This document shows, in pieces, positions 17,541-47,868 of a stretch of 64,000 bases of DNA. The notes under the pieces are model-generated. The model did not search any database and was not told where the DNA came from. It saw only the letters and a program-made list of their open reading frames with translations. The stretch is from a phage. Location of the stretch: the sequence record OZ335958.1; one strand, written 5' to 3'. Made by a program: the position numbers and the translations under genes. Within the stretch, counting starts at the first letter, position 1; each line of letters begins with the position of its first letter.

Positions 17541-18011
17541 TTAATCATGTTTCCACACCCCATCGGTATTTGACCAAAGTCGCTGATTATCTGATCCTCG
17601 CCACAGCTTTTTGGTCGGAAGATTTTTCTCATACTTCCCATCAATAATAACATCAACATATTTAAGCATTTCTAGTTGTTTAATATCTTCAAACTTATAT
17701 CCTGTCCACAACCAAATGCTTTTATTGGGATAAAGATTTTTTACTGTTTGAACAATGCAATGAATAACATCTCGGTTATCAGGATAAAGAGGGTCACCTC
17801 CAGTTATAGTTAATCCTTCTATATAATCATTATTCAAACATTCAATTAATTGTTCTAGTGTTTCACCAGTGAATGGAACGCCATTTCTAGCATTCCATGT
17901 TGATTTATTATAACACCCTTCGCATTTATGCAAACAACCTGTAACGAAAAGAACGACCCTGCATCCAGGGCCATTCACAAAATCGCAGGGATAAAATCTA
18001 TCGTAATTCAT
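17541..18011 (-). CDS. nrdG: anaerobic ribonucleotide reductase activating protein (radical SAM)
   Basis: 156 aa, cysteine cluster CLHKCEGCYN, immediately downstream of nrdD with 4-nt overlap. Confidence 0.85.
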   Translation of the reverse strand: MNYDRFYPCDFVNGPGCRVVLFVTGCLHKCEGCYNKSTWNARNGVPFTGETLEQLIECLNNDYIEGLTITGGDPLYPDNRDVIHCIVQTVKNLYPNKSIWLWTGYKFEDIKQLEMLKYVDVIIDGKYEKNLPTKKLWRGSDNQRLWSNTDGVWKHD

Positions 18012-19825
18012 TGGTGTTTAACCCTATGCATGATTTCTTTATTTTTGCCGAGATTAAATCCGCGTTCGTTCGGATTTCCCAAATAACCACAAGTTCTTCT
18101 TATTGTGTTCATCTTTTTAGGATCAGTTTCTCCACAAATAGAACAAACAAATCCGTTTTCAGTAGGAGTCATTTCATGTGTACTTCCACACGTAAAACAT
18201 TTATCTACTGGCATATTAACACCAAAATAATCTAAATGTTGTGCAGCATAATCCCATACAGCCTCAAGACCTTTTAGGTTATTTTTCATATCAGGAAGTT
18301 CAACATAAGAAATGTGACCACCTGTCGCAATGAAATGATATGGTGCTTCTCGAGAAATCTTTTCAAACGGAGTAATATTTTCTTCTACTGAAACGTGGAA
18401 ACTATTAGTGTACCATCCTTTATCAGTAACATCTTTTACACTTCCATATTTCTCAGTATCAAGTTTACAGAAGCGATAGCACAGATTTTCAGCAGGTGTA
18501 GAATACAAACTAAAAGCAAAACCGGTTCTTTCAGTCCACTGTTTAAGACGAGCATTCATTTTAGTTAAAATTTCCTGTCCAATATCACGACCGACAAGAA
18601 TATTCAATTCGTGAATACCAATGTATCCTAAGGACACTGAACTTCTACCGTTTTTAAATAACTCAATTATGTCGTCATCAGGTTTAAGACGAACCCCGAA
18701 TGCACCTTCTTGGTAAAGAATAGGAGCAACAATCGCTTTAACTCCTTTTAAGGAACTAATTCTACACATCAAAGCTTCAAAACACAAATCCATTCGTTCA
18801 TTGAACAATTCGGCAAATTTCTGTTCATTGAATTGTGTTCCAATATAAGAATCTAACGCAATACGAGGAAGATTCAGTGTTACAACACCAAGATTATTAC
18901 GTCCATCAAGAATTTCATTACCAGTCGAATCTTTCCATACGCTTAAGAAACTACGGCAACCCATTGGAGAAACAGGAATAGATGAACCGGTGATAGCTTT
19001 ATTGTTCTTAGCTGAAATAATATCAGGATACATTCTTTTGCTTGCACACTCTAAAGCAAGCTGCTTAATATCATAGTTCGGATCATCTTTATAAAGATTA
19101 ACACCTTCTTCAACGAACATAACAAGTTTAGGGAAAATAGGAGTTATCCCATCGCGACCAAGGCCTTTAATACGATTTTTCAGAATTGCTTTCTGAATCA
19201 TTCGTTCAGTCCAGTCAGTTCCAGTACCAAATGTAATTGTTACAAAAGGCGTTTGTCCGTTTGAACTAAAGAGAGTATTTACTTCATATTCATAAGCTTG
19301 GAATGCATCGTATACGTCTTTTTCTGTTTTAGATTGGGCGTAATTCAACGCATCAGCGATTTGCCATTTTTCTGCATCCTCAATATGTTTTGCATAGGTG
19401 CGTTTAACATAAGGAGAAAGTACTTTATCTACATTCGCAAAAGTCGTTCCACCATATTGATGAGAAGCAACCTGCGCAGTAATTTGTGCCATAATTGCAG
19501 TAGCAACGCCGATTGATTTAGGAGTTTCAATCTGCGCATTACCGAGCTTAAATCCATTCTCAAGCATTCCTTTTAAATCTACTAAACAGCAATTAGTAAA
19601 TGGAAGAGCAGGTGAATAATCAATATCATGGAAATGAATAATTCCGCTTTCATGCGCTTTCATAATAAAAGACGGGACCATATTTTTGGCAATGTGTTTA
19701 GACACAATACCAGCCATAAGGTCCCGTTGAGTTGGAAAAACACGAGAATCTTTATTAGCATTCTCGTTTAAAAGGTCTTTATTAGTTTTATGAATCAATC
19801 CTTCAATTTCTTTTTCAATTGTCAT
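18008..19825 (-). CDS. nrdD: anaerobic ribonucleoside-triphosphate reductase (class III), intronless
   Basis: 605-aa uninterrupted ORF, C-terminal glycyl-radical motif RRTCGYLG and Zn-ribbon CFTCGS..CSICG. Confidence 0.9.
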   Translation of the reverse strand: MTIEKEIEGLIHKTNKDLLNENANKDSRVFPTQRDLMAGIVSKHIAKNMVPSFIMKAHESGIIHFHDIDYSPALPFTNCCLVDLKGMLENGFKLGNAQIETPKSIGVATAIMAQITAQVASHQYGGTTFANVDKVLSPYVKRTYAKHIEDAEKWQIADALNYAQSKTEKDVYDAFQAYEYEVNTLFSSNGQTPFVTITFGTGTDWTERMIQKAILKNRIKGLGRDGITPIFPKLVMFVEEGVNLYKDDPNYDIKQLALECASKRMYPDIISAKNNKAITGSSIPVSPMGCRSFLSVWKDSTGNEILDGRNNLGVVTLNLPRIALDSYIGTQFNEQKFAELFNERMDLCFEALMCRISSLKGVKAIVAPILYQEGAFGVRLKPDDDIIELFKNGRSSVSLGYIGIHELNILVGRDIGQEILTKMNARLKQWTERTGFAFSLYSTPAENLCYRFCKLDTEKYGSVKDVTDKGWYTNSFHVSVEENITPFEKISREAPYHFIATGGHISYVELPDMKNNLKGLEAVWDYAAQHLDYFGVNMPVDKCFTCGSTHEMTPTENGFVCSICGETDPKKMNTIRRTCGYLGNPNERGFNLGKNKEIMHRVKHQ

Positions 19826-35986: not shown

Positions 35987-36330
35987 CTAGTACTCAATCC
36001 TCGATTATAAGAATCTACTAAACGGTCAACCATTGAATGACAAGCGGCTTTATCTTTCTCCTCCGCAACTGAACATTCTAAAGTATTCCACTTTTTAGCA
36101 TATCGTTTTAACAATGTATCATTTTTGTATCTGCTTGATTTATCTCTTTCTCCGTCTTTATATGCATATATTAATTTCTGCGCAAATTCAGCTTGGCATG
36201 CTTTATTTTTCCCACAATAATCCGCGGCAGTACGGTTTACATACTCTCTAATTTCAGTATATGATGTATCTGCTAACGCAGAAGCAGAAAATGAAATTAA
36301 TCCTATACATAAAACCAAAATTTTAGTCAT
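35983..36330 (-). CDS. secreted small protein (vs position)
   Basis: 115 aa with signal peptide MTKILVLCIGLISFSASALA. Confidence 0.45.
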   Translation of the reverse strand: MTKILVLCIGLISFSASALADTSYTEIREYVNRTAADYCGKNKACQAEFAQKLIYAYKDGERDKSSRYKNDTLLKRYAKKWNTLECSVAEEKDKAACHSMVDRLVDSYNRGLSTR

Positions 36331-36868
36331 TTACTATTTCCAAAAGTTTATTATTTTTAAGGTAATTAGCCTTTTCTAGGACTTCAGAAGCATATTTAGA
36401 ACCTGCTTTAACATTCCATCCCGAATTATAAGAGGATATCGCCTTTCTTATATCGCCCTTATGTATATTTAACCAATAAGAAAGTTCAATGTACGCCCAG
36501 GAAGCTGAATTGGACCGTTTATTCAACATTCTTTTTATTTCAGCATCGGTCATATTATAACCAAGTTCCTTAACTCTTGCTCGCATAGTAGGCAAATAAT
36601 TTTGGAACATTCCATAGGCATGATGCTTTGGTTTAGATTTTAAATTAACTCCGGCAGAGCTTTCTTGCCATAAAATAGCAGCCATTATATGACCTAATCC
36701 GCTCTTGTGGATATTTTTGTGTGTTTTATATTTTCCATCCTTAGAAAATTGTTCCCCGAATTGATACGCGTAACGCATGTTATCGAGTTGGACATTACTG
36801 AAAGTATGCTCGGAGCTATGCGCCATCATTGAAATGGCCAATAGACCAGCGAGTAGTGCTTTTCTCAT
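36323..36868 (-). CDS. periplasmic lytic-transglycosylase-like protein
   Basis: 181 aa, signal peptide, SLT-like motifs WQESS, GMFQ, SYNSGW. Confidence 0.5.
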   Translation of the reverse strand: MRKALLAGLLAISMMAHSSEHTFSNVQLDNMRYAYQFGEQFSKDGKYKTHKNIHKSGLGHIMAAILWQESSAGVNLKSKPKHHAYGMFQNYLPTMRARVKELGYNMTDAEIKRMLNKRSNSASWAYIELSYWLNIHKGDIRKAISSYNSGWNVKAGSKYASEVLEKANYLKNNKLLEIVND

Positions 36869-36875
36869 GCTTACC

Positions 36876-37337
36876 TCATTGAGTTTTAATTACTGCTTTA
36901 GAAGCCTTTCCTGGTAAACGACGACTGTTGATAATTGCCATCCTGCATTGAAGCGACGGGTCTTTGAACTTCGCATTAGGTTTACAAACTGTAAATCCAA
37001 GCCAAAGATTTCCATCTGTGATTTCTAAACGTCCAGGACGGTATTCAACCCCATCAATAAAATCCTCATCAATGTCAGGACGCGGAGGCATACTCAGGAA
37101 TTCATTAACTTCTAAAACATGGTCTTTTATTTTGTGGAATAATTCAAAAACATATGTCTCATCAATCTCCCGTTGAATTGCACGATCAAGAAGATGCTGA
37201 GAATATTTTAGATGAAACGATGAGACCCCTGCTGCTTTTGATGCCTCACGAATCTCATTGTTAATTTGACGAAACTCCGACTCAAAGTGACGACGAAGCT
37301 TATTTCGACGGATAAAAACTTCTGTGTTGATAGTCAT
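36876..37337 (-). CDS. regB: site-specific endoribonuclease RegB
   Basis: 153-aa ORF recognised as T4 RegB by length, position and sequence. Confidence 0.8.
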   Translation of the reverse strand: MTINTEVFIRRNKLRRHFESEFRQINNEIREASKAAGVSSFHLKYSQHLLDRAIQREIDETYVFELFHKIKDHVLEVNEFLSMPPRPDIDEDFIDGVEYRPGRLEITDGNLWLGFTVCKPNAKFKDPSLQCRMAIINSRRLPGKASKAVIKTQ

Positions 37338-37364
37338 GTTATTCTCCTCTTAACTGATAGAAAA

Positions 37365-37394
37365 ATTATACCACAGTCAAGAGGAAAAGTAAAC
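37365..37394 (-). promoter_or_regulatory. T4 early-type promoter upstream of regB
   Basis: Minus-strand GTTTAC (37394..37389), 18 bp, TATAAT (37370..37365). Confidence 0.55.
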
Positions 37395-37396
37395 AG

Positions 37397-37717
37397 TTAT
37401 TCTTTAAATCTAATCAATTTATTCATAGACTTTGAAACTTCTGCACGGACCTCATGTAGGTTTTTAAGCTGTTCAAGACGCTGCTCATAGTAAGCAATTT
37501 CATCTTCTTCGAGACAGTCCTGTGAATCTTCTTTAAGATAACGTGCATAGTCCTGGAAAGCTTTACGGACTACTTCTTGGAAGTCATCAAGACTTTGAAT
37601 TTTCTTAGGAGCAACAGATACACGACGAGGGGCAGTATAATACTCATAACCAAACCCTGCGCTTAATTGAGCCATTAATATTTTTCCTCTGGTTGGAACA
37701 CAGCACGACAAGCCCAC
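37397..37717 (-). CDS. hypothetical protein
   Basis: 106-aa ORF. Confidence 0.4.
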
Positions 37718-37977
37718 ATACTAGCTTCTTTGAGTTTCGTTTTAGCAATAGTTAACTGATCGAGGCTTTCAGCATAATTCTTTGCGAATTCGTAGTCTTC
37801 ACAATTATCTAGTGCTTCCCAGAATTCATCATATAAAGCGTCAAAGATAAGTCCTAAACGAACTTCAGCGTCTTTGATAGCATTCACTTTATCGATTTTC
37901 TCTTCAGTGTGCGGCTTATAACCTTTAATATCTTCAATCATATTTGACTTCCTCGCCCGTTCCCAAATCATATTCAA
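37675..37977 (-). CDS. hypothetical protein
   Basis: 100-aa acidic ORF. Confidence 0.4.
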
Positions 37978-38155
37978 CTAAACGAATAGGTTCATGAATG
38001 CCATATCCCTGAACAGAAATTTCTGTCGTAGGATAAATTCCACTAATATCACCCATATTCCACGCTTCATTAAATTGCTGTTCGCCTGAATTACTAAACC
38101 ATTCTGCGAAAGCATTTAACACATCTTTAGAACCTTCAATAATTATCTTTGCCAT
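37934..38155 (-). CDS. hypothetical protein
   Basis: 73-aa ORF. Confidence 0.4.
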   Translation of the reverse strand: MAKIIIEGSKDVLNAFAEWFSNSGEQQFNEAWNMGDISGIYPTTEISVQGYGIHEPIRLVEYDLGTGEEVKYD

Positions 38156-38517
38156 TACAAGCTCTCAGTAAAGGTACGAGCGATAACGTCGCGCTGCTGT
38201 TCCGGAGTCAGAGAGTTAAAGCGAACTGCATAACCGGATACACGGATGGTCAGCTGCGGATATTTTTCCGGATGCTTAACTGCATCTTCCAGAGTTTCAC
38301 GACGCAGAACGTTAACGTTCAGGTGTTGACCACCCTCAATTTTAACTGTAGGTTGTGTTTCAATTTCAATTTCACGGGCATGCAAACCATAGAAAATTTC
38401 TGGGTCTACAAAAGAGTCCTCTTTAAAGGTTTTAGAGACAATAATTCGTGCTTGAATACCATCTTCAAAATAAATAGTACCTCTATGTGTGCCTTCAAGA
38501 ATTTGATATGCTTTCAT
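38155..38517 (-). CDS. autonomous glycyl-radical cofactor-like protein (GrcA/YfiD-like)
   Basis: 120 aa; C-terminus [29 protein letters not shown] matches the glycyl-radical motif; 3 prime half has higher GC than surroundings. Confidence 0.6.
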
Positions 38518-38523
38518 ATAACC

Positions 38524-38904
38524 TCAATTAGAAAATAAATTTATCCAAGATTGTTCTTTAATTAAAAATGGCTCAGAATCATATGCCATTAAACTTTGTG
38601 TGATTAGTCCTTTAAAAGGCCCATCAATAAATTCCATAGTAAAATATGGAATTTTATTCATTAGTCGTGCATTAGGAGCAGTGCACAAAACTCTGCATCC
38701 TTTGAATACGCCTTTTTGTAATTTGTACTGCTTAGGATAAAATTCGCTCAAGACGTTATTATTTGCCAAAATTTCAAAATGATTCACCAACTTATTTTTA
38801 ATAGTTTTTGGTGAAAAATAAAGATATTCGAAAAGCTGTGTGTCTGTCATCATTGCATTCCAATCACAAAAAATTGAGGACGAGTAATACCGCCAATGCA
38901 GCAT
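38524..38904 (-). CDS. hypothetical protein
   Basis: 126-aa ORF. Confidence 0.4.
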   Translation of the reverse strand: MLHWRYYSSSIFCDWNAMMTDTQLFEYLYFSPKTIKNKLVNHFEILANNNVLSEFYPKQYKLQKGVFKGCRVLCTAPNARLMNKIPYFTMEFIDGPFKGLITQSLMAYDSEPFLIKEQSWINLFSN

Positions 38905-39437
38905 TTACTGTTGCAGCAGTGTTGCACAGTTTCAATATGAATATCATAAATTTTATCCATATCAGGAGATTTAACAGGCTCATCGATTATATACAAGATT
39001 CGAGAAAGCGATAAACCTCTGAACTTGCTACCTCTATTACCAATAAAACTACGGACAGAATCGGTAAATAAGCGGAATCGGATATCATCGCTAGAATAAC
39101 GAGAAAATTCTTTTTTAATGTGGCCTGCAGAAATTTTAGCGTAAGCTGAAGTGTTAGAAAGAACAATAACTGTTCCACCATCATACAGCCAATTAGCAGC
39201 AAAATTAGTCACAGCAGTTGATTTACCGGATTGACGTCCACCATCTAGTCGAAGTGTACAATACTGTTTGAGCAAGTCTTCAAATGGTAGGATATAATCG
39301 TTTTTACAAATTTCTTCTACTCTAGCATCAGAATGGTGTGTAAAAGCATTCATCAGGGATAGATAAGGACCAGTTAAAAATGTTCTCATTTTATTCTCTC
39401 TAAATTTGGGCCATTCCATGGCGCGTGAATTGTCCAT
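38850..39437 (-). CDS. P-loop NTPase-like protein
   Basis: Walker A-like GGRQSGKST; start uncertain (55-nt overlap with downstream ORF). Confidence 0.4.
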   Translation of the reverse strand: MDNSRAMEWPKFRENKMRTFLTGPYLSLMNAFTHHSDARVEEICKNDYILPFEDLLKQYCTLRLDGGRQSGKSTAVTNFAANWLYDGGTVIVLSNTSAYAKISAGHIKKEFSRYSSDDIRFRLFTDSVRSFIGNRGSKFRGLSLSRILYIIDEPVKSPDMDKIYDIHIETVQHCCNSKCCIGGITRPQFFVIGMQ

Positions 39438-39542
39438 TTCTGTATTTACCCATTACCGCACTTGGGCTCGACCTTATTACAGGTTGGCGGGAATCCCTCA
39501 TAGAATCATGAAGTCCAGCTTGTTCCCATATTTCTTATTTGC

Positions 39543-40016
39543 TTATTTGAATGATTTGACGTACTGAATAGAGCCTTTGCTATTCACGAAAGCGATTTTA
39601 CCATTTTTGTTATACATGGTAGCAGTACGCTGATAGCCATAAGTTTGCTTACCAGATTGATAACCAACTAGTGCGAAATTATCTTCACCCATTTTATTCT
39701 GCTTAGCGCGGATACGTTCATGACCGTGCGCCATAAGAACCTTAGCATCACCAGTTGCAATGGATCTACGAGTTTTTTCATCTTCAACTGTATTAACAAA
39801 GTCGTCAAATGAATCAAATTTAGCATGAGATTTATTATACAGTTTTCCATCTACTGCATAATTATATCCCTGTACATCCATCTCAACTTCTGTACCATCA
39901 TCTAATACAGCAGTGATTTTTTGACCTTTTTTAAATTTCAAAAGATCAGTAAAAGATTCAGCAATAATTTGAGAATTAATAGCTGCTTCAGTGATAAATT
40001 CTTGATATGTTTTCAT
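39543..40016 (-). CDS. internal-protein-like capsid-targeted protein
   Basis: 157 aa; N-terminus MKTYQEFITEA matches the T4 internal protein capsid targeting sequence; body unlike IPI/II/III. Confidence 0.55.
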   Translation of the reverse strand: MKTYQEFITEAAINSQIIAESFTDLLKFKKGQKITAVLDDGTEVEMDVQGYNYAVDGKLYNKSHAKFDSFDDFVNTVEDEKTRRSIATGDAKVLMAHGHERIRAKQNKMGEDNFALVGYQSGKQTYGYQRTATMYNKNGKIAFVNSKGSIQYVKSFK

Positions 40017-40025
40017 GTGTTTCCT

Positions 40026-40442
40026 TTAAATGTAAATATTTTTGCCGTAGTATTTATACCAGTGTGGCTTCATTAAAATTTTTTCATCGAGTCGTTGTTG
40101 ACTCAATTTAATAGCCGATTTGCATTGGTTATAATCATTTTTCCATTCTGCTGGAATATCGCTGATGTCAGGAACTTCAGTATCTTTTATACTAAACCCA
40201 CGTTTTAAGCATTCCGCTATAATGTCTGATTGACGCTTTCGCAAAAATTCTAACTTATCATAAAAGAACGTAACATGACCAGAACCTAAAATAAACTCGG
40301 AAGATATTTTAAAATCTTTAACCCGCTTACCATTTGCCACATGTTTACGAACTATACCAAAAACACGTGGCAATTCACGGTATTCTGCGATTAAATGTTG
40401 ATCAGCAAGTTCAGATACTAAAGTCAAATTAATACGAGTCAT
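40026..40442 (-). CDS. denV: endonuclease V (pyrimidine dimer DNA glycosylase)
   Basis: 138-aa [31 protein letters not shown] recognised as T4 DenV. Confidence 0.85.
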
Positions 40443-40450
40443 TTTATCCC

Positions 40451-40496
40451 TCCTAGAATTGTGAATATACTATCACAATTCTAGGAGAAAGTAAAC
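40451..40496 (-). promoter_or_regulatory. early-type promoter embedded in a 14-bp perfect inverted repeat that includes the denV Shine-Dalgarno
   Basis: Arms TCCTAGAATTGTGA (40451..40464) and TCACAATTCTAGGA (40473..40486) flank the -10 region; GTTTAC at 40496..40491. Confidence 0.5.
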
Positions 40497-40500
40497 AACT

Positions 40501-41031
<531 letters not shown>

Positions 41032-41487
41032 TTAAAAGAGGCTGTTCATTATTCGGTAAAGTGAAGGACCCATCACATATTGCCACTGAGTACGAGGAAT
41101 AAGAGCAAAAGCATCCATCTCTGGAATCATAACGCCATCTTTATTTTCAAAATAAGACTCGCAATGGCAATTTCTAAACATCTCATGCTCTACTGGAATC
41201 GTATAATAAAATAACTGTAAGTCTTTATTACTAGAATATTTAAATACACCTAAGTCTTCTAGAAGGTCTGGATTATAATCGATAAAACCAGTCTCTTCTG
41301 AGCATTCTCTTTTTGCAGCTTCCAGTGCATTCAAATCAGAACTTTCTACACGCCCCTTTGGAATATCCCAGCGATGTGCCATCATTCCAGGTTTACGAGA
41401 ACCGGTAACTCGTCCCATAAATAAATCTTTATCTTCTGTCATAAAGATAATACCAGCTGATAATGTTTTCATTTTAATTTCCTGCAT
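41032..41487 (-). CDS. nudE: Nudix hydrolase
   Basis: 151 aa; Nudix box GRVESSDLNALEAAKRECSEETG. Confidence 0.8.
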   Translation of the reverse strand: MQEIKMKTLSAGIIFMTEDKDLFMGRVTGSRKPGMMAHRWDIPKGRVESSDLNALEAAKRECSEETGFIDYNPDLLEDLGVFKYSSNKDLQLFYYTIPVEHEMFRNCHCESYFENKDGVMIPEMDAFALIPRTQWQYVMGPSLYRIMNSLF

Positions 41488-41957
41488 TCAGTGATAAAAT
41501 TATTTAAATTTTGAGCATATTTCTTTTCATCAAAAATCTTTTGTTGTCTGCGCATCCGCCATGGCATTTCAATGAACATGTACCATATTCCTGATAATAT
41601 TGATGCTGTAAAAATATTAACAAGTATAATTAAAAGAATCCAATCTCCCGTTCTGCCTACTGGACTTTCTCCAAAGAAGCAAAATACAAATGATGTCACA
41701 GGAAAACTAATAATATACCACAGAATCATAATCTTATCTGTGAACCAATCAGCGTTCGTTAATTTAGCGCGACCGTTTCGAATACACACGAATTTATCAT
41801 CTGTCGCAGTAGATGGCTTAGCTGCTTGATATCCCATTCTAAACTCCCTAATTAATCGTTTCTTTGTATCTTCAGAACAGCCGCTCCAGTCAACTCTATC
41901 AACTGAAATGCCATCGTCCCCATCATCTAAATCATACCAGCGAGTTTTTAAAATCAT
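41469..41957 (-). CDS. membrane protein
   Basis: 162 aa with two central hydrophobic helices. Confidence 0.4.
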   Translation of the reverse strand: MILKTRWYDLDDGDDGISVDRVDWSGCSEDTKKRLIREFRMGYQAAKPSTATDDKFVCIRNGRAKLTNADWFTDKIMILWYIISFPVTSFVFCFFGESPVGRTGDWILLIILVNIFTASILSGIWYMFIEMPWRMRRQQKIFDEKKYAQNLNNFITECRKLK

Positions 41958-42316
41958 TTAATTTTCCTACAATCACTCACAAACTCTTCCATTGATTCTT
42001 TTTCAATATAAGACATATAGCTATTATATTCCTTTAATTGTATTTTGTAATCCTTTTTTCTTTGCCAATTTATTTTAAAATTATCATAATGAAAATATAA
42101 CATGGTACCAAAGAATGAAAATAATGAAATCGCTATAGTAAAACGAAGTTCACTCCAAACCTCTATTATAATTACTGTGCCGTCGATGTTTAAAATAAAA
42201 CAGTCAATTAACAATCCAATAAGACTACCCGCAAGAGCTGCAAATACTGATACAGCAAGAATTAATAGTGCCTCAGGAAACGAATATTTGACTTTATTTA
42301 GTTTTGGCTTTTGCAT
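41954..42316 (-). CDS. membrane protein
   Basis: 120 aa with two hydrophobic helices. Confidence 0.4.
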   Translation of the reverse strand: MQKPKLNKVKYSFPEALLILAVSVFAALAGSLIGLLIDCFILNIDGTVIIIEVWSELRFTIAISLFSFFGTMLYFHYDNFKINWQRKKDYKIQLKEYNSYMSYIEKESMEEFVSDCRKIK

Positions 42317-42711
42317 CGTGATTCCTTAACAAATTTCATAATTTCATCAAATTCATACATATCTAGCTTAAGCTGGTGTTCCTTTTTAATCTTTTTACAC
42401 TGAGCTTTCCAATCACGTACACGTTTACGATAATGTCTTCCTTGATACCAGTATCCTACCCAATTTACAGGTACTAATAAAAGCGGAACTACCAATGGAA
42501 GAATTAGTGTTGCTCCAAATATTACACCAGATTCAATATCAGTCATAACGTCTATAACCATTCCAGCAATCACCAAAATCACAAATGATACAGCTACCAC
42601 AGGACCTATTAACACATCAGTAGAAATTAGCTGACGCTTTGGTTCATACTTCACAGGTTTACTTGGAAGGTATAGTGATGGCTTTGACATATTCTCTACA
42701 TTCCTTAACAA
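42298..42711 (-). CDS. membrane protein
   Basis: 137 aa with two hydrophobic helices. Confidence 0.4.
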   Translation of the reverse strand: MLRNVENMSKPSLYLPSKPVKYEPKRQLISTDVLIGPVVAVSFVILVIAGMVIDVMTDIESGVIFGATLILPLVVPLLLVPVNWVGYWYQGRHYRKRVRDWKAQCKKIKKEHQLKLDMYEFDEIMKFVKESRCKSQN

Positions 42712-43273
42712 ATTTTTCTAATAATAAATCACTTTCAAAATTGGGATTTTCTACGAATTTATCAAAAAGATCATCAACAATAGTTAAGATATTCTTTTTA
42801 CTAAGAATACGCTTATTTTCATATTTTGTTTCAGAGTCAACTATAAGAGTAAAGAAATATTTCTTTCCCTGAAATTTTACCGTAGTATCAATATAAAATA
42901 AATTTGATTTTTGTAAATTACGTTTAAACCATGCATCACTTAAACTATAAACGCCAAGATAATCATAATCGTCGTTTAAATAACAAACCGTCCATTCAGG
43001 AGAAATGAAATCAGTAAATTCAACATCAAAATCACACGTCAATGAATGAATTGATTCAATACTGTTAATGAGTATTCCAGGACGTATTAAAGACTTTTTA
43101 CCTCTAGAAAATCTTCCGGAAAGGCTTTCATCAGTTTCATATGAAGACCCCCAATAGTAATTACGTCCTTCTGCCATGCGTTTAAGAGCATTTAGTAATT
43201 GGTCTGGAACATCAACCTGTCTTTGGAACTCTTCAAACATTGAATTGAAATCACTTTGCATTTTCATTTTCAT
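42659..43273 (-). CDS. hypothetical protein
   Basis: 204-aa ORF; start uncertain. Confidence 0.4.
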   Translation of the reverse strand: MKMKMQSDFNSMFEEFQRQVDVPDQLLNALKRMAEGRNYYWGSSYETDESLSGRFSRGKKSLIRPGILINSIESIHSLTCDFDVEFTDFISPEWTVCYLNDDYDYLGVYSLSDAWFKRNLQKSNLFYIDTTVKFQGKKYFFTLIVDSETKYENKRILSKKNILTIVDDLFDKFVENPNFESDLLLEKFVKECREYVKAITIPSK

Positions 43274-43292
43274 TCCTATTTACTCCAAGTAT

Positions 43293-43310
43293 AAGGGGCC
43301 GAAGCCCCTT
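43293..43310 (-). other. intercistronic UUCG-tetraloop RNA hairpin
   Basis: Minus-strand AAGGGGC-UUCG-GCCCCUU, no U-tract. Confidence 0.45.
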
Positions 43311-43314
43311 ATCA

Positions 43315-43908
43315 TTATTTCAGAGAATTAATGTATTCCTGAACATCGGCAGAGGTAGTTTCAACCCCAGAAATATTACCATTAAAGGTTTCAACTCGAG
43401 CAAGGGTATCTTCAATATCAACCTTAGTCAGTGCTGCAATTTCAACTACATCATCGGCAGTACTAATTCCAAGGGCATTTGCCGCACGAGTTTCACGGAT
43501 ATATTCCAATTTAACTGCAAGCTCTTGACGAGCATCATCTAACTCAACTACTTTCTTGGCGATTTCAATTCGCATTTCAGCATAACCGTCAGCCTTAGTA
43601 GTCAACTGCTCAGCTGTTCGACGATATAGTAAACCGAGTTTAGCATGCATTGTTACATCTTGGCCTTCGGAAAGAAGTTTACGAATTTCACGCTCTTTTG
43701 ATTCGGCCTGTCGATTCTTTTCGATAACAAGTTCACGAATACGTTTTTCTTCGTTAATAGATTTAACAGAAGCAGTTTTTAGATCTTTAATTTTATCAAG
43801 TAGTTTTGCTGCTGCAGCAGTATACTGTTCTTCGACAGATAGATTTTTAGCCATAGCAGAACCAAGTTTAGTGCGAATAAACTCAACAATTTTCTTCAGT
43901 GTGTTCAT
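43315..43908 (-). CDS. coiled-coil protein with PspA/IM30-like character
   Basis: 197 aa, largely helical, charged heptad-rich. Confidence 0.4.
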
Positions 43909-44012
43909 AGTATTTCCTTAGGTTGATTAAGATTTAAAATCCGTAAAAGTAGTATTATACTCTATCATCAAGTTACAGGCTCATAATATCTCAATCATGA
44001 GCCTATGTAAAC

Positions 44013-44276
44013 TTATTTCATATTATTGAAATATTCTTCTGCGATTTCGTCGTTATCGTGGTAAACTTTAGAAGACAGTTTAACATAACCTTCTGCTGTG
44101 AACATATTAATCACAACCTTTACAGTATACCACTGTCCGTCTTCATTACCCATTACTGCGTAAGTTTCAAACATCGGATGGTCAGGACCGATAACTTTAA
44201 TATCATTCACTGTACGACCGAAATCTTCTGAAACGCATTTCATAAAGAAGTTGAACAGTTCGCCGTAATTATCCAT
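44013..44276 (-). CDS. hypothetical protein
   Basis: ATG at 44276 with GGAG RBS (87 aa); track start 44330 lies inside the promoter. Confidence 0.4.
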   Translation of the reverse strand: MDNYGELFNFFMKCVSEDFGRTVNDIKVIGPDHPMFETYAVMGNEDGQWYTVKVVINMFTAEGYVKLSSKVYHDNDEIAEEYFNNMK

Positions 44277-44320
44277 TTCATTCTCCAAGTTGTTTTTCTG
44301 TATCAGTAGTTGATAGTTGT

Positions 44321-44350
44321 ATAGTACCATGGAAGAACAGGGATGTAAAC
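44321..44350 (-). promoter_or_regulatory. T4 early-type promoter
   Basis: Minus-strand GTTTAC (44350..44345), 18 bp, TACTAT (44326..44321). Confidence 0.5.
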
Positions 44351-44482
44351 CGTTTTGTGAAAAAATTTTTAAAAAGTTTTATGGAATTCTGGGGCAGGGA
44401 GGGGCAATTAAAAGGTAGGATAATATATTATAAAGGGTATAAACTAAATGATGCCTAGAGAGGCCCGGAAAGGCCTAGATAC

Positions 44483-44511
44483 CAAAAAGCCCCAACCTTT
44501 TGGTCGGGGTT
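44483..44511 (-). terminator. rho-independent terminator
   Basis: Minus-strand CCCCGACC-AAAA-GGUUGGGG followed by CUUUUU, just after ORF 44519..44992. Confidence 0.55.
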
Positions 44512-44518
44512 AAGAATG

Positions 44519-44992
44519 TTATTTGATTTGTTTAGCAGACCAAATGCGGTCTTTAATAATTTTTTGAATGTCTTCAACATACTCAAGAGAGTGAACGTGT
44601 GGATTATCTTTGAAACTATAAGCACGGGCTAACTTTTGGCCTTCGGTTTTGATTACTAAAAGCTCTTTAAGGATAGCTTCATATTTAGCGATAATTCCTT
44701 TAACGATATTTTTTTCTTGTGCCGCTTTAGGATCTGCTTTAGGAGCAGGTTTACCCGAAGGCTTTGCAAAAGCAGCTCCAGTAGCAACTAAACTTTTCCA
44801 GGCCATACTAACTGCATTTCCCGTAAATCCTTCTGCTTTCATGTCGCGAGCAAATTGGAATCGTGATTCGTCAGAAGCATCTTTATAGGAATATTTACCC
44901 GCTGCAATGGCTGCTTTTGCGACAGCTTGAATTTCGGTGCTAGATGCTTCATTTAACACCGCTTCATTTAAAAATTGAGCATATGATTTCAT
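44519..44992 (-). CDS. internal-protein-like capsid-targeted protein
   Basis: 157 aa; N-terminus MKSYAQFLNEA resembles the internal protein targeting sequence; Ala/Lys-rich; own late promoter. Confidence 0.5.
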   Translation of the reverse strand: MKSYAQFLNEAVLNEASSTEIQAVAKAAIAAGKYSYKDASDESRFQFARDMKAEGFTGNAVSMAWKSLVATGAAFAKPSGKPAPKADPKAAQEKNIVKGIIAKYEAILKELLVIKTEGQKLARAYSFKDNPHVHSLEYVEDIQKIIKDRIWSAKQIK

Positions 44993-45032
44993 CTTATTTC
45001 CTGTTTTAATTCGTGGATTTAATATACTACTA

Positions 45033-45040
45033 TATTTATA
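45033..45040 (-). promoter_or_regulatory. late promoter TATAAATA
   Basis: Minus-strand TATAAATA about 40 nt upstream of the 44992 start codon. Confidence 0.5.
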
Positions 45041-45070
45041 CTAAAAAGCCCCAACCTTTCGGTCGGGGCT
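45041..45070 (-). terminator. rho-independent terminator at end of stable-RNA region
   Basis: Minus-strand AGCCCCGACC-GAAA-GGUUGGGGCU followed by UUUUUAG. Confidence 0.55.
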
Positions 45071-45376
45071 AAGCCTTGCGGCAACCTTGTCGGGGTTCCA
45101 CCTGCTAAGGCAAGTGTTTGTACGAAACGCCGGGATTCGAACCCGGTTATTAAGTAGTTGACGCTACTCAATATTTTTAAAAGGCCATATCTCGACCATA
45201 TCCGAACGTTCCGTCAAAAACGCTACTCGGCTTACGGCAAAGATATTTCCTCGAATCGATAATTCGGTGCGCCGTTTCAGCTGTGATAGTAAAGAACCAG
45301 AACACAGTAAAACTGTGGGAGGAACTATACTCCAGGGAACATCAGTCCGACGACTTACCGGTAACGACCCGGTTTC
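45071..45376 (-). ncRNA. candidate stable small RNA(s) of the tRNA region (T4 species 1/2-like)
   Basis: No protein ORF; tRNA T-arm-like CGGGUUCGAAUCCCG on minus strand; bounded by terminator; T4 has stable RNAs next to tRNA-Arg. Confidence 0.4.
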
Positions 45377-45727
45377 TTAATATTCTTTTAAAGTATCAAT
45401 CTGTTCACGACGTTTACGCCATAAATCAATTGCTTCATACGCAGATTCAGCATTTCTAATTAGTCGGCATTTGTGTAAAGACTTATGATTTTGATATTGT
45501 GTAGATAACGGAATTTTATCTAAAAGGTCTTTACGTTCAAAGTATTCATAACCATCTAAGCCAAATGAACGATTTTTAAGAAATTGCCAATGACCGTATT
45601 CGTTTTCGACATAAACATAATCTGCGTGCTGATAAAGCAAATTAATTACACGTTCAGAAATAACAGTGTCATTATGATTAAAATAGAATGTTAAATCATG
45701 AACTACTAAATAAACATTACCTTTCAT
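45377..45727 (-). CDS. hypothetical protein embedded in the tRNA/stable-RNA cluster
   Basis: 116-aa ORF with protein-like composition between tRNA-Arg and the RNA region. Confidence 0.45.
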   Translation of the reverse strand: MKGNVYLVVHDLTFYFNHNDTVISERVINLLYQHADYVYVENEYGHWQFLKNRSFGLDGYEYFERKDLLDKIPLSTQYQNHKSLHKCRLIRNAESAYEAIDLWRKRREQIDTLKEY

Positions 45728-45743
45728 ATTTTCCTCACTTAAT

Positions 45744-45820
45744 TGGTCGAGGCAGTAGGGATCGAACCTACGACCCAGGACTTAGAAGGTCCTTGCTCTT
45801 CCTTCTGAGCTATGCCTCGG
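45744..45820 (-). tRNA. tRNA-Arg (anticodon UCU)
   Basis: Cloverleaf folded by hand; anticodon loop CUUCUAA; CCA encoded. Confidence 0.8.
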
Positions 45821-45823
45821 ATT

Positions 45824-45898
45824 TGGCGGACGTGATAGGATTCGAACCTATAACCAATCGCTTAACAGGCGATCGCTCTGCCATTGAGCTACACATCC
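45824..45898 (-). tRNA. tRNA-Asn (anticodon GUU)
   Basis: Cloverleaf folded by hand; anticodon stem AUCGC/GCGAU, loop CUGUUAA; T-loop UUCGAAU; CCA encoded. Confidence 0.65.
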
Positions 45899-45903
45899 AA
45901 ATT

Positions 45904-45989
45904 GGTGGGGAGTGATGGAGTCGAACCACCCGAGTCGCAATGACAATGGATTTACAGTCCACACCGCTACCTCTACGGGATAACTCCCC
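45904..45989 (-). tRNA. tRNA-Tyr (anticodon GUA), type II
   Basis: 86 nt; anticodon loop CUGUAAA; long variable arm; CCA encoded. Confidence 0.65.
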
Positions 45990-45997
45990 AAATTAAT

Positions 45998-46073
45998 TTG
46001 GTGGCCCTGGGTGGAATTGAACCACCATCTGGCGATTATGAGTCGCTTGCTTGAACCTTCCAGCTACAGGGCC
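45998..46073 (-). tRNA. tRNA with CAU anticodon (Ile2-type or Met)
   Basis: Anticodon loop CUCAUAA; T-arm GGUGG-UUCAAUU-CCACC; CCA encoded. Confidence 0.65.
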
Positions 46074-46074
46074 T

Positions 46075-46150
46075 TGGTGCTGATTGACGGAATCGAACCG
46101 CCGACCTTCTCATTACAAGTGAGTTGCTCTACCTACTGAGCTAAATCAGC
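46075..46150 (-). tRNA. tRNA-Thr (anticodon UGU)
   Basis: Anticodon loop CUUGUAA; 1 nt from the preceding tRNA. Confidence 0.75.
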
Positions 46151-46155
46151 AAAAC

Positions 46156-46245
46156 TGGCGGAGGCGATAGGATTTGAACCTATGAGTCGCCGGAGCGACT
46201 GCCGGTTTTCAAGACCGGTGCATTAAACCACTCTGCCACGCCTCC
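46156..46245 (-). tRNA. tRNA-Ser (anticodon UGA), type II
   Basis: 90 nt; anticodon loop CUUGAAA; sequence recognised as T4 tRNA-Ser. Confidence 0.85.
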
Positions 46246-46247
46246 AG

Positions 46248-46321
46248 TCTCCATACAAGGATTTGAACCTTGGACCTCCTGATCCCAAATCAGGCGCTCT
46301 ACCAAACTGAGCTACACGGAG
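46248..46321 (-). tRNA. tRNA-Pro (anticodon UGG), CCA not encoded
   Basis: Anticodon loop UUUGGGA; 2 nt upstream of tRNA-Ser (dimeric precursor arrangement). Confidence 0.75.
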
Positions 46322-46331
46322 TAAATTAAAT

Positions 46332-46405
<74 letters not shown>

Positions 46406-46410
46406 AAATT

Positions 46411-46497
46411 TGGTGCGAGAAGTGGGACTCGAACCCACAAGGAAATCATTCCGCAGCATTTTAAGTGCTGTGCCTTTACCAATTTGACCATTCTCGC
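46411..46497 (-). tRNA. tRNA-Leu (anticodon UAA), type II
   Basis: 87 nt; anticodon loop CUUAAAA; long variable arm. Confidence 0.8.
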
Positions 46498-46498
46498 G

Positions 46499-46571
46499 CT
46501 GGGAATAAAGGACTCGAACCTTTGCATCCTGGAATCAAAATCCAGTGCCTTACCAACTTGGCTAATTCCCA
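46499..46571 (-). tRNA. tRNA-Gln (anticodon UUG), CCA not encoded
   Basis: U1-A72 acceptor pair, anticodon loop UUUUGAU; 1 nt from tRNA-Leu (Gln-Leu dimer). Confidence 0.75.
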
Positions 46572-46657
46572 ATTATTAACAAAGGCTCTTAAGCAAGAAC
46601 CCTTGATGATAGAGGGTATTAATCAGTGCGATATGAGTTAATAATAACAAATAATTC

Positions 46658-47173
46658 TTAAAGCAAATTAAACATTTTAACGGTCGGCAAAACAATTTCT
46701 TCTTCTATATAAGAGTATTTAACACTCTCAACTACACGCAAAAAATCATAATCATAATACTCAGAAGCATTACCTAAAATATTAATAAGTCCTTCAAGCA
46801 CTTTATTACCATTCACAAAAAATAAGTCAAATACACGTTCTTCATCTTCTTCAGATTTATTACCAAGATCAACTTCTATGCGAAAGACCTTTTTAATGAA
46901 TTCTGGATAAAGCTGGTCTGAGAACAGTCCTTCAACCAAGTATTCATAAATAAAAAGAGATTGCTCGCTGAACAAACCATTACCGCAATAGCGCTCAATT
47001 TTAGTACTAGAATATCTGCTTTTAAATTTCTTTAAAAGATACTGAAATTGTAAGATTTCATGCTCTTCTACGCCAAACAGTGTTTTAGTTTTATAGTTGT
47101 CACCATCATTTTCCCAGGTAGTGACATCAATTACGTAGCCCTGCGGAATTGTAGTACCTAAACAAATATTCAT
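46658..47173 (-). CDS. hypothetical protein
   Basis: 171-aa ORF. Confidence 0.45.
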   Translation of the reverse strand: MNICLGTTIPQGYVIDVTTWENDGDNYKTKTLFGVEEHEILQFQYLLKKFKSRYSSTKIERYCGNGLFSEQSLFIYEYLVEGLFSDQLYPEFIKKVFRIEVDLGNKSEEDEERVFDLFFVNGNKVLEGLINILGNASEYYDYDFLRVVESVKYSYIEEEIVLPTVKMFNLL

Positions 47174-47176
47174 TTT

Positions 47177-47467
47177 TCACCACGCTGCGTTAATGTAAGT
47201 ATATTTAATACATTCAAGACCCAAAGGATTCTTGAAAATATCATATTCAAGAGGACCTTTTTCTGTTTCAATAAAGAAATCAAAATTTACTGTATTAAAT
47301 TTACGTTCTTCCTTCACTAATTTAACTTGAGAAGATGAACGGTCAATGTAAACCTTTTCAACTTCAAAACATGTTAAAATGCCATAATCATCAATCAAAG
47401 CTTTAGCCGCGTCTTGATCATATTTATATCCATTTTCAATGGATGATACTTTCGCATAAAGAATCAT
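47177..47467 (-). CDS. hypothetical protein
   Basis: 96-aa ORF. Confidence 0.4.
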   Translation of the reverse strand: MILYAKVSSIENGYKYDQDAAKALIDDYGILTCFEVEKVYIDRSSSQVKLVKEERKFNTVNFDFFIETEKGPLEYDIFKNPLGLECIKYTYINAAW

Positions 47468-47469
47468 TA

Positions 47470-47868
47470 TCAGCCTTCATCAACAATAGTGTGAGTATTG
47501 GCATTTACGATTTGCCACCAATCAAAGCGATTAGAATCCATCGGTTTGTTTTCATTTTCTTTGATAATGTCACGGAGTTCATCTTCAGAGAATGCTTTAG
47601 CAATTAAATCGGTATACCCACCACGGGGATAATAATTATCACCTGCAAACAAAAGGAAATTTACCTTCCCGGAAGGAACATATGCTTCCTTAGGATACTT
47701 GTTTCCTGCGTGGTCAACCACTTCAATATAACGGTAAGGAATATCGGTTCTTTCAACCCATTGCCATGCCGCTGCAGGGGAATCGAAAGCATCTACACCT
47801 AAACGATTATCTTCATCTTTAGACGGATTATTTTCGTAATCCGCATATACATAATATTCAACGTTCAT
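47470..47868 (-). CDS. hypothetical protein
   Basis: 132-aa acidic ORF. Confidence 0.45.
   Translation of the reverse strand: MNVEYYVYADYENNPSKDEDNRLGVDAFDSPAAAWQWVERTDIPYRYIEVVDHAGNKYPKEAYVPSGKVNFLLFAGDNYYPRGGYTDLIAKAFSEDELRDIIKENENKPMDSNRFDWWQIVNANTHTIVDEG

Follow-up and report, generated by a model that had tools for sequence, protein, structure and literature searches.

We found that the gene vs.6, located in a 64,000-nt stretch of phage DNA from the sequence record OZ335958.1 (this whole stretch is referred to below as the window), is a mosaic of phage and host sequence. Its codons 1-60 belong to an old, AT-rich phage version of the gene, whereas codons 61-120, which encode the glycyl-radical domain, have been overwritten by grcA of Escherichia coli. 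The gene occupies positions 38155..38517 on the minus strand and codes for a phage GrcA-type autonomous glycyl-radical cofactor, known in T4 as Y06I. As a whole, the data are best explained if vs.6 provides a spare part for pyruvate formate-lyase (PFL) and is at the same time a mosaic with a host-derived radical domain, a reading to which we assign a probability of about 85%.

The identification of the gene is based on its open reading frame (ORF; ATG-initiated, 120 codons plus stop), the Pfam match, the likeness to T4 and the gene order. Gly_radical (PF01228) is the sole Pfam domain, covering residues 60-101 with a score of 67.2 bits (cut-off 22.2). In BLASTP, the protein shares 74% identity with E. 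coli GrcA (YfiD) across 100 residues; its residues 61-120 match GrcA 68-127 without a single mismatch, and its N-terminal part is far less GrcA-like than the C-terminal one. Based on motif alignment with GrcA and PFL, Gly95 in RVSGYAV is the predicted glycyl-radical site (codon 38233..38235 on the minus strand, counted from the ORF). Both Gly95 and the motif are invariant across a 44-sequence alignment. The equivalent residue of PFL, Gly734, is the site of both the radical and the cleavage (PMC8683613).

The T4 counterpart, NP_049730 (vs.6), is annotated as "autonomous glycyl radical cofactor GrcA". Both proteins consist of 120 amino acids and differ at only three residues (K12R, P54T and H73R, with Arg73 of the window protein being the E. 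coli state), and in both genes a phage-type 5' half is joined to an E. coli-type 3' half. In either genome vs.7 lies upstream and vs.5 downstream, the latter with a TAATG overlap, and regB, denV and e, which mark this early region, are nearby. The vs.7-vs.6-vs.5 order is also shared with phage BW-1, one of the Tequatrovirus genomes to which the flanking 3 kb are 97.7% identical, and the wider order is as in T4: e, denV, internal protein, vs.8, vs.7, vs.6, vs.5, vs.4, vs.3, regB, vs.1, vs, tk. Thus, by both position and identity, the window gene is the ortholog of T4 vs.6 (Straboviridae). It is not a new lead, as vs.6/Y06I is already known; both the gene and the in vitro function of the T4 ortholog have been published, and the window gene adds nothing functionally new. 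The new element is the domain-level, host-specific patching in at least two phage genera, a modest evolutionary point; in the literature searched we found no description of a vs.6/grcA mosaic or of host patching.

To compare the two parts of the gene, we split it at the codon before GGQHLN into a 5' half of 180 nt (codons 1-60; 38338..38517, minus strand) and a 3' module of 183 nt (codons 61-120 plus stop; 38155..38337, minus strand), the latter corresponding to the structured glycyl-radical domain and delimited as an E. coli grcA patch by its identity and its GC content at third codon positions (GC3). GC content in 100-nt windows is 0.45-0.51 over 38150-38349 and 0.24-0.41 in the flanks. The 5' half has a GC of 0.33 and a GC3 of 0.17, while the 3' module (0.50 and 0.46, respectively) closely resembles the 183-nt 3' module of E. 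coli grcA itself (0.49 and 0.43). Among all 183-nt windows of the 64 kb, the module ranks in the top 0.7% for GC, and the only equally GC-rich parts of the window are a tRNA cluster and the stretch 45046-45243, the sole non-tRNA stretch to match the patch in GC, which has no Rfam match.

Nucleotides 179-363 of the gene (38155..38339) are 98.4% identical to grcA in each of the 5,426 complete E. coli genomes searched, none of which matches beyond approximately half of vs.6. In pairwise alignment, the identity begins abruptly at ...TTGA(G/A)GGTGGT and stops at the stop codon, with no host flank. The 3' limit of the host-like patch therefore coincides with the TAATG overlap (38153..38157, minus strand), in which, according to the sequence, the ORFs and the junction alignment, the vs.6 stop (38155-38157) and the vs.5 start (38153-38155) share one base. 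Within the module, 180 of the 183 nucleotides are the same as in E. coli grcA. The remaining three (module positions 3, 174 and 178) differ only synonymously, which corresponds to a synonymous divergence (dS) of 0.07 at about 45 synonymous sites; the difference map leaves a 170-nt core (module positions 4-173; 38165..38334, minus strand) identical at every base. The 5' half, by comparison, has 106 of 180 positions identical in a global alignment (Fisher p = 4e-23). When the whole 64 kb were searched against the same E. coli genomes with megablast, the grcA patch was detected in every genome, and among the matches listed the only other host-like DNA was a tRNA-Tyr on a plasmid record. At all residues by which PflB and GrcA can be told apart, the phage protein is of the GrcA type, indicating that the DNA patch came from grcA and not from pflB. 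An assembly artefact or contamination can be ruled out, since the same patch is present in the T4 reference and, when the E. coli 3' module is used as a query, in 639 phage records at at least 95% identity (753 records matched in total).

Weak amino acid identity, AT-richness and conservation among phages identify the 5' half as homologous to, but diverged from, the N-terminal region of GrcA. Its product is 35% identical to GrcA residues 28-67 over 40 amino acids (pairwise E = 2e-6), a weak but significant similarity to the N-terminal half (residues 1-60) of YfiD. In the 44-sequence alignment, phage and bacterial N-terminal halves can be aligned, with AR.IV.K, ED and RE(V/I) preceding a P.V(K/R) stretch, and this half is kept across the phage homologs. 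The MKAYQIL..G..GTIY type of N-terminus is also found in distant phages without host-like 3' halves, namely, Karamvirus, RB16 and the T5-like fp01. Thus, the phage GrcA homolog came first and its 3' half was replaced later.

A preliminary description of the window, prepared from the sequence alone, had recognized the GrcA/YfiD-type cofactor and the elevated GC of its 3' half, both of which are borne out by the above results, and had proposed capture from an enterobacterial host, with nucleotide identity to host grcA as one test. The identity is there, although restricted to the 3' half. Accordingly, capture holds for the last ~183 nt, which are host-derived, but not for the 5' half, which is an old diverged phage homolog. 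Recent acquisition of the entire host grcA by the phage would account for the host-like GC3 and near-identity of the 3' half, yet the 5' 180 nt, with their low GC3 and 35% amino acid identity to GrcA, have no DNA similarity to grcA, and the 5' half of E. coli grcA (201 nt) did not match any of 50,697 phage records in a sensitive blastn search. Since, in addition, the likeness stops at the stop codon without any host flank and the same N-terminal type occurs in phages lacking the host-like module, we reject this scenario, which we regard as highly improbable. An equally improbable alternative is that a GrcA-like gene was captured once in the distant past and that the 3' likeness results solely from purifying selection on the protein. 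The 60 C-terminal amino acids are indeed nearly invariant across phage and bacterial homologs. However, synonymous sites are not maintained by selection acting on the protein, and the same module has diverged to a dS of 0.56 in the comparison of E. coli with Klebsiella pneumoniae and of 1.02 in that with Salmonella (0.81 in the 5' half), compared with 0.07 for the window. Moreover, the modules of Karamvirus and RB16, which encode nearly the same protein, reach only 78-83% DNA identity. The ordinary dS values of the bacterial modules reveal no special constraint on silent sites and thus point to transfer from host to phage.

The radical-domain half would have been replaced when the phage gene recombined with the host chromosome, with crossovers in two blocks conserved between phage and host: one at the 5' junction and one in the 3' stretch from QQRDVIA to the stop codon. 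E. coli and Klebsiella phages share the codon at which the 5' junction occurs (...AAA ATT | GAA GGx GGT), and this junction opens a block in which even unreplaced phage genes resemble host genes, while near the 3' end CAGCAGCGCGACGTTATCGC is almost invariant in phage and host sequences. Homologous recombination is therefore likely to have had its crossovers in these two blocks. Since T4 recombines readily with plasmids that carry homologous DNA, recombination between phage and host genes is mechanistically plausible. With respect to protein structure, the 5' junction corresponds to a point some seven residues into the structured half of YfiD, the disorder boundary of which lies between residues 60 and 61.

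To find out how the patch is distributed, we compared grcA of 80 species of Enterobacterales and Pasteurellaceae with vs.6 of ten GenBank phages and 80 IMG/VR contigs. For Tequatrovirus and Mosigvirus, E. coli is the closest source of the 3' module (96.7-98.9%), followed by other Escherichia (96-98%) and Citrobacter (~91%). Karamvirus (Enterobacter phages) shares 77% identity with the window in the 5' half, but its AT-rich 3' module (GC3 0.2-0.3) does not exceed about 80% identity with any of the hosts sampled; this module looks like the unreplaced state. The same kind of replacement occurred separately in Jiaodavirus (Klebsiella phages), with K. pneumoniae grcA as the donor. There, the 5' half has a GC3 of 0.23 and the 3' module a GC3 of 0.59, with the Klebsiella-type residues LLDAVEH. 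In one Jiaodavirus contig, L178, module nucleotides 1-158 are the same as in K. pneumoniae grcA, and all differences are confined to the last 25 nt, which form a phage-type, Karamvirus-like tail. At the 21 diagnostic sites where the E. coli and K. pneumoniae modules differ, the window, T4 and JS09 carry the E. coli state in all 21 cases. The K. pneumoniae state is found at 19 sites in L178, 17 in Kp122 and 15 in PKO111; Karamvirus is mixed and matches neither host. Together, the E. coli-type and K. pneumoniae-type patches require at least two independent transfers from host to phage. A metagenome scan with a 32-nt Jiaodavirus pattern gave 28 loci, 25 of them on bacterial contigs with a GC of 53-58% (except for one short contig at 47%), most of which encode a GrcA exactly matching that of K. 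pneumoniae (GRCA_KLEP7).

The module of PKO111, a K. oxytoca phage, has a GC3 of 0.59 as well, but is only 87% identical to K. pneumoniae and at most 86% to the other species sampled. Between PKO111 and Kp122, dS is 0.39 in the 3' half and 0.24 in the 5' half. These values suggest that the PKO111 patch may have come from a host outside the sample, e.g. K. oxytoca. A full-length grcA copy is also present on the 275-kb plasmid unnamed4 of Klebsiella sp. WOUb02 (NZ_CP170105.1), with 86% identity between its 3' module and the Kp122 patch. Several 'viral' IMG/VR contigs (L161-L171) retrieved with vs.6 as the query contain GC-rich fragments of the pflB-like C-terminus (ORFs of 124-284 amino acids with MLLDAME(H/N)PE(K/N)Y) rather than vs.6; these look like bacterial or prophage-flank DNA.

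The E. coli-type patches of Tequatrovirus and Mosigvirus have different 3' ends. In Mosigvirus the patch ends in GAGAGTCTATAA, the same tail as in the RB16/Miro phages, whereas in Tequatrovirus it ends in GAGAGCCTGTAA, GAGAGCTTGTAA (as in the window) or GAAAGTTTGTAA (as in T4), a mixture of E. coli and phage states. We further compared divergence along the region between the window and the Mosigvirus JS09. The upstream vs.7 and the downstream vs.5 have a dS of 1.5 and 2.7, respectively. In the 5' half of vs.6 dS is 0.44, with 19-22 differences between the window and Mosigvirus, most of them common to all three Mosigvirus sequences. By contrast, the 3' core shows no fixed difference and two private ones, although about 13.8 synonymous differences would be expected from the rate in the 5' half (P = 1e-5). 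These results are better explained by another independent event, or by re-conversion at a later time, than by simple inheritance; alternatively, exchange of the module between phages could be the source of the likeness. As a separate observation, the low dS of the 5' half itself (38338-38517) differs from that of its saturated flanks (37934-38155, dS 2.7; 38524-38853, dS 1.5), so that either the whole of vs.6 moved between the genera later than its neighbours or it is unusually constrained.

Taken together, the E. coli-type patches of the two genera and the K. pneumoniae-type patches of Jiaodavirus are compatible with a broader scenario, in which grcA of the current host is copied again and again over the radical-domain half of vs.6 in T4-like phages, by homologous recombination with host chromosomal DNA during lytic infection. 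We consider the odds of this scenario to be about even. If it is true, the patch would be an adaptive device for host matching at the level of a single domain, and a nucleotide marker of the recent host of a lytic phage. Continuous homogenization by the host within Tequatrovirus is a different matter and was not demonstrated, given the small number of synonymous changes in the patch, some of which are shared between phages. In the Tequatrovirus OES_C-2 (an Escherichia phage, PQ642263.1), the patch is closest to E. coli, with a single difference in 183 nt; its 5' half has undergone a 6-nt deletion in the GAAATTGAAATT repeat, which changes EIEIE to EIE.

The function of the T4 ortholog is known from published work. 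According to the account given in PMC8683613, which cites Wagner et al. (2001, BBRC 285:456), T4 Y06I restores O2-cleaved PFL in vitro after the PFL activase has installed the radical. Y06I and YfiD are described as the only two validated PFL spare parts, both activated by the PFL-activating enzyme, PFL-AE (PMC8683613). The same paper describes residues 1-60 of YfiD as disordered by nuclear magnetic resonance (NMR) and residues 61-127 as folded like PFL 693-759; only with its N-terminal half does YfiD bind cleaved PFL measurably and receive the radical efficiently, and the spare part replaces the C-terminal strand, loop and helix of its target. The window protein matches the structure of YfiD (PDB 6OWR) with E = 4.6e-42 and also matches PFL residues 697-759, and its 63 C-terminal residues are ~78% identical to PflB 697-759 (identity counted from the alignment). 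Because a spare part has to replace the C-terminus of its target, this likeness points to PflB, and perhaps TdcE, as the target and to PflA as the activase. Based on the work on the T4 ortholog and YfiD, oxygen would cleave host PflB at the radical glycine, the phage protein would bind the damaged enzyme so that its C-terminal domain substitutes for the lost PflB C-terminus, and host PflA would then install a new radical on Gly95, allowing the conversion of pyruvate to acetyl-CoA to go on during infection. Presumably, the phage needs its own copy because the T4-infected cell can no longer make GrcA.

Two other roles have to be considered. T4 NrdD, like PFL, is cleaved by oxygen at its radical glycine. 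NrdD and its activase NrdG are both encoded in the window, as the preliminary description had pointed out in proposing that the protein might support host anaerobic metabolism or act as a spare radical domain; they lie about 18 kb away from vs.6 (NrdD, 18008..19825; NrdG, 17541..18011; both minus strand). A 2006 comparison of T4-like genomes likewise noted the Pfam match of vs.6 and, from the shared domain, guessed at a role in nucleotide metabolism (PMC1524935). Nevertheless, vs.6 has no significant similarity to the NrdD of the window (BLASTP E = 2.5) and no NrdD-like C-terminal domain; its C-terminus is instead ~78% identical to that of PflB and 100% identical to that of host GrcA, while the spare-part mechanism requires replacement of the target's own C-terminal strand, loop and helix. 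Furthermore, copying host grcA makes sense only if host PflB and PflA are the partners. The proposal thus finds no support in sequence and we reject it on these grounds; a spare part for NrdD, possibly activated by NrdG, appears very unlikely. Another conceivable role is that of an anti-host decoy, which would tie up PflA or bind PflB via the phage N-terminal half and so redirect the use of pyruvate or S-adenosylmethionine. Indeed, this half, which in YfiD governs PFL binding and activation, is strongly diverged yet conserved among phages, and AlphaFold2 predicts for residues 1-50 (window 38368-38517) an ordered, beta-rich domain of four beta-strands and a short helix (predicted local distance difference test, pLDDT, ~90), unlike the NMR-disordered N-terminus of YfiD. 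On the other hand, the radical glycine and all surrounding residues are intact, and in the account of PMC8683613 the T4 ortholog restores rather than blocks PFL, so that a decoy is improbable too. The predicted order of the N-terminal half may reflect a bound state. A fold search with the N-terminal domain retrieved only weak KOW/SH3-like matches (E 0.2-0.8). The C-terminal half of the model, predicted with lower confidence, matched 6OWR and the C-terminal domains of glycyl-radical enzymes.

Several observations weigh against our interpretation of vs.6 as a PFL spare part with a host-derived radical domain. The functional claim for the window protein is made by analogy, via the T4 ortholog and its citation in a later paper, and we found no in vivo phenotype of a vs.6 mutant in the literature searched. 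In addition, PFL binding by the phage protein may differ from that by YfiD, because the PFL-binding N-terminal half is only 35% identical. The protein also scores below the cut-off of the GrcA equivalog model TIGR04365 of NCBIfam (154.5 bits against 170, over residues 20-120), a shortfall explained by the divergence of its N-terminal half. With regard to the patch, RB16, which is an E. coli phage, and other Straboviridae lineages in the IMG/VR sample have modules that are 74-83% identical to E. coli. More broadly, the T5-like phages, RB16/Miro, Cronobacter phage S13 and other IMG/VR lineages showed no detectable patch, being 63-84% identical to every host sampled, and, judging from these modules, host patching is not universal among phages. 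Tequatroviruses isolated on Yersinia, Hafnia or Salmonella keep the E. coli-type patch, which therefore does not always track the isolation host. Finally, the patch varies within Tequatrovirus by 0-7 synonymous changes, private or shared between phages; these can be explained by one capture per genus and do not require continuous conversion by the host.

We also assessed the position of the window protein relative to related families. In line with the definitions of the GrcA family (TIGR04365, IPR011140), it is a stand-alone protein with its own stop codon and a GAGG ribosome-binding site, and it has a C-terminal Gly_radical domain with the RVSGYAV motif. The Shine-Dalgarno-like GAGG (38522..38525, minus strand), identified by reading the sequence, is located 4 nt 5' of the vs.6 ATG and overlaps the stop codon of vs.7 (ORF end at 38524). 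With GrcA (YfiD, 6OWR), a stand-alone glycyl-radical cofactor of ~14 kDa, the window protein shares the motifs of the N-terminal half and a domain identical in protein and 98.4% identical in DNA (GrcA residues 68-127, codons 61-120 in the window). It differs from GrcA in being seven residues shorter, in its AT-rich N-terminal half, in the equivalog score and in being phage-borne without the host grcA flanks. GrcA2 and GrcA3 (NF008341, NF038360) match the 60 C-terminal residues with 93-106 bits, below their cut-offs of 145 and 158 bits. These families are ~80 amino acids long and lack the N-terminal half, which is complete in the window protein. The PflB C-terminus (1H16/2PFL, residues 697-759) is similar over 63 residues, and the PFL-like character of the domain agrees with the fold match to 6OWR; in PflB, however, the domain belongs to a 759-residue enzyme. 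Homologs of vs.6 are widespread. Matches to the gene occur in 1,463 phage records and cover 80% or more of its length in 863 of these; the records include phages of Escherichia, Klebsiella, Salmonella, Shigella, Enterobacter and Yersinia, among others, and a search with the protein collected 7,841 relatives at E <= 1e-10.

The mosaic has a parallel in photosynthesis genes of cyanophages such as psbA, a lytic phage copy of a host metabolic gene that swaps segments with the host by recombination and thereby forms mosaics. In the case of vs.6, the swapped segment is a single protein domain with a common 5' junction in two phage genera on two hosts, and the phages are T4 relatives of enterobacteria that contain hydroxymethylcytosine. 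An unbroken run of 170 bases of the host chromosome is present in a phage that is strictly lytic and has modified DNA, and the E. coli and K. pneumoniae patches provide direct evidence for natural recombination of T4-type phages with chromosomal genes of their hosts. The patching also suggests that the radical domain must fit host PflB and PflA closely. In practical terms, such patches could aid the assignment of hosts to uncultured T4-like phages and offer a simple experimental system for studying host-to-phage gene conversion.

In the vicinity of vs.6, the window differs from T4 in the region 39543-40995, where denV (40026-40442) comes directly after e (40501-40995) and is itself followed by an ORF of 157 amino acids resembling an internal head protein (39543-40016); in T4, the order is e, ipIII, ipII, denV. 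Promoter and terminator signals around vs.6 (11 found) do not exceed the number expected in shuffled sequence (12.9), and hence we make no claim regarding transcription signals around the gene. An Rfam scan of 36000-47500 detected tRNAs and no other RNA element. The tRNA genes form a cluster of ten (45744-46571, minus strand): Arg-tct, Asn-gtt, Tyr-gta, Met/Ile-cat, Thr-tgt, Ser-tga, Pro-tgg, Gly-tcc, Leu-taa and Gln-ttg. T4 has eight tRNA genes, so that Asn and Tyr would be the additional ones in the window. The region of tRNA-Tyr (45900-45992) is ~90% identical to a sequence in a plasmid record of E. coli O111:H8.

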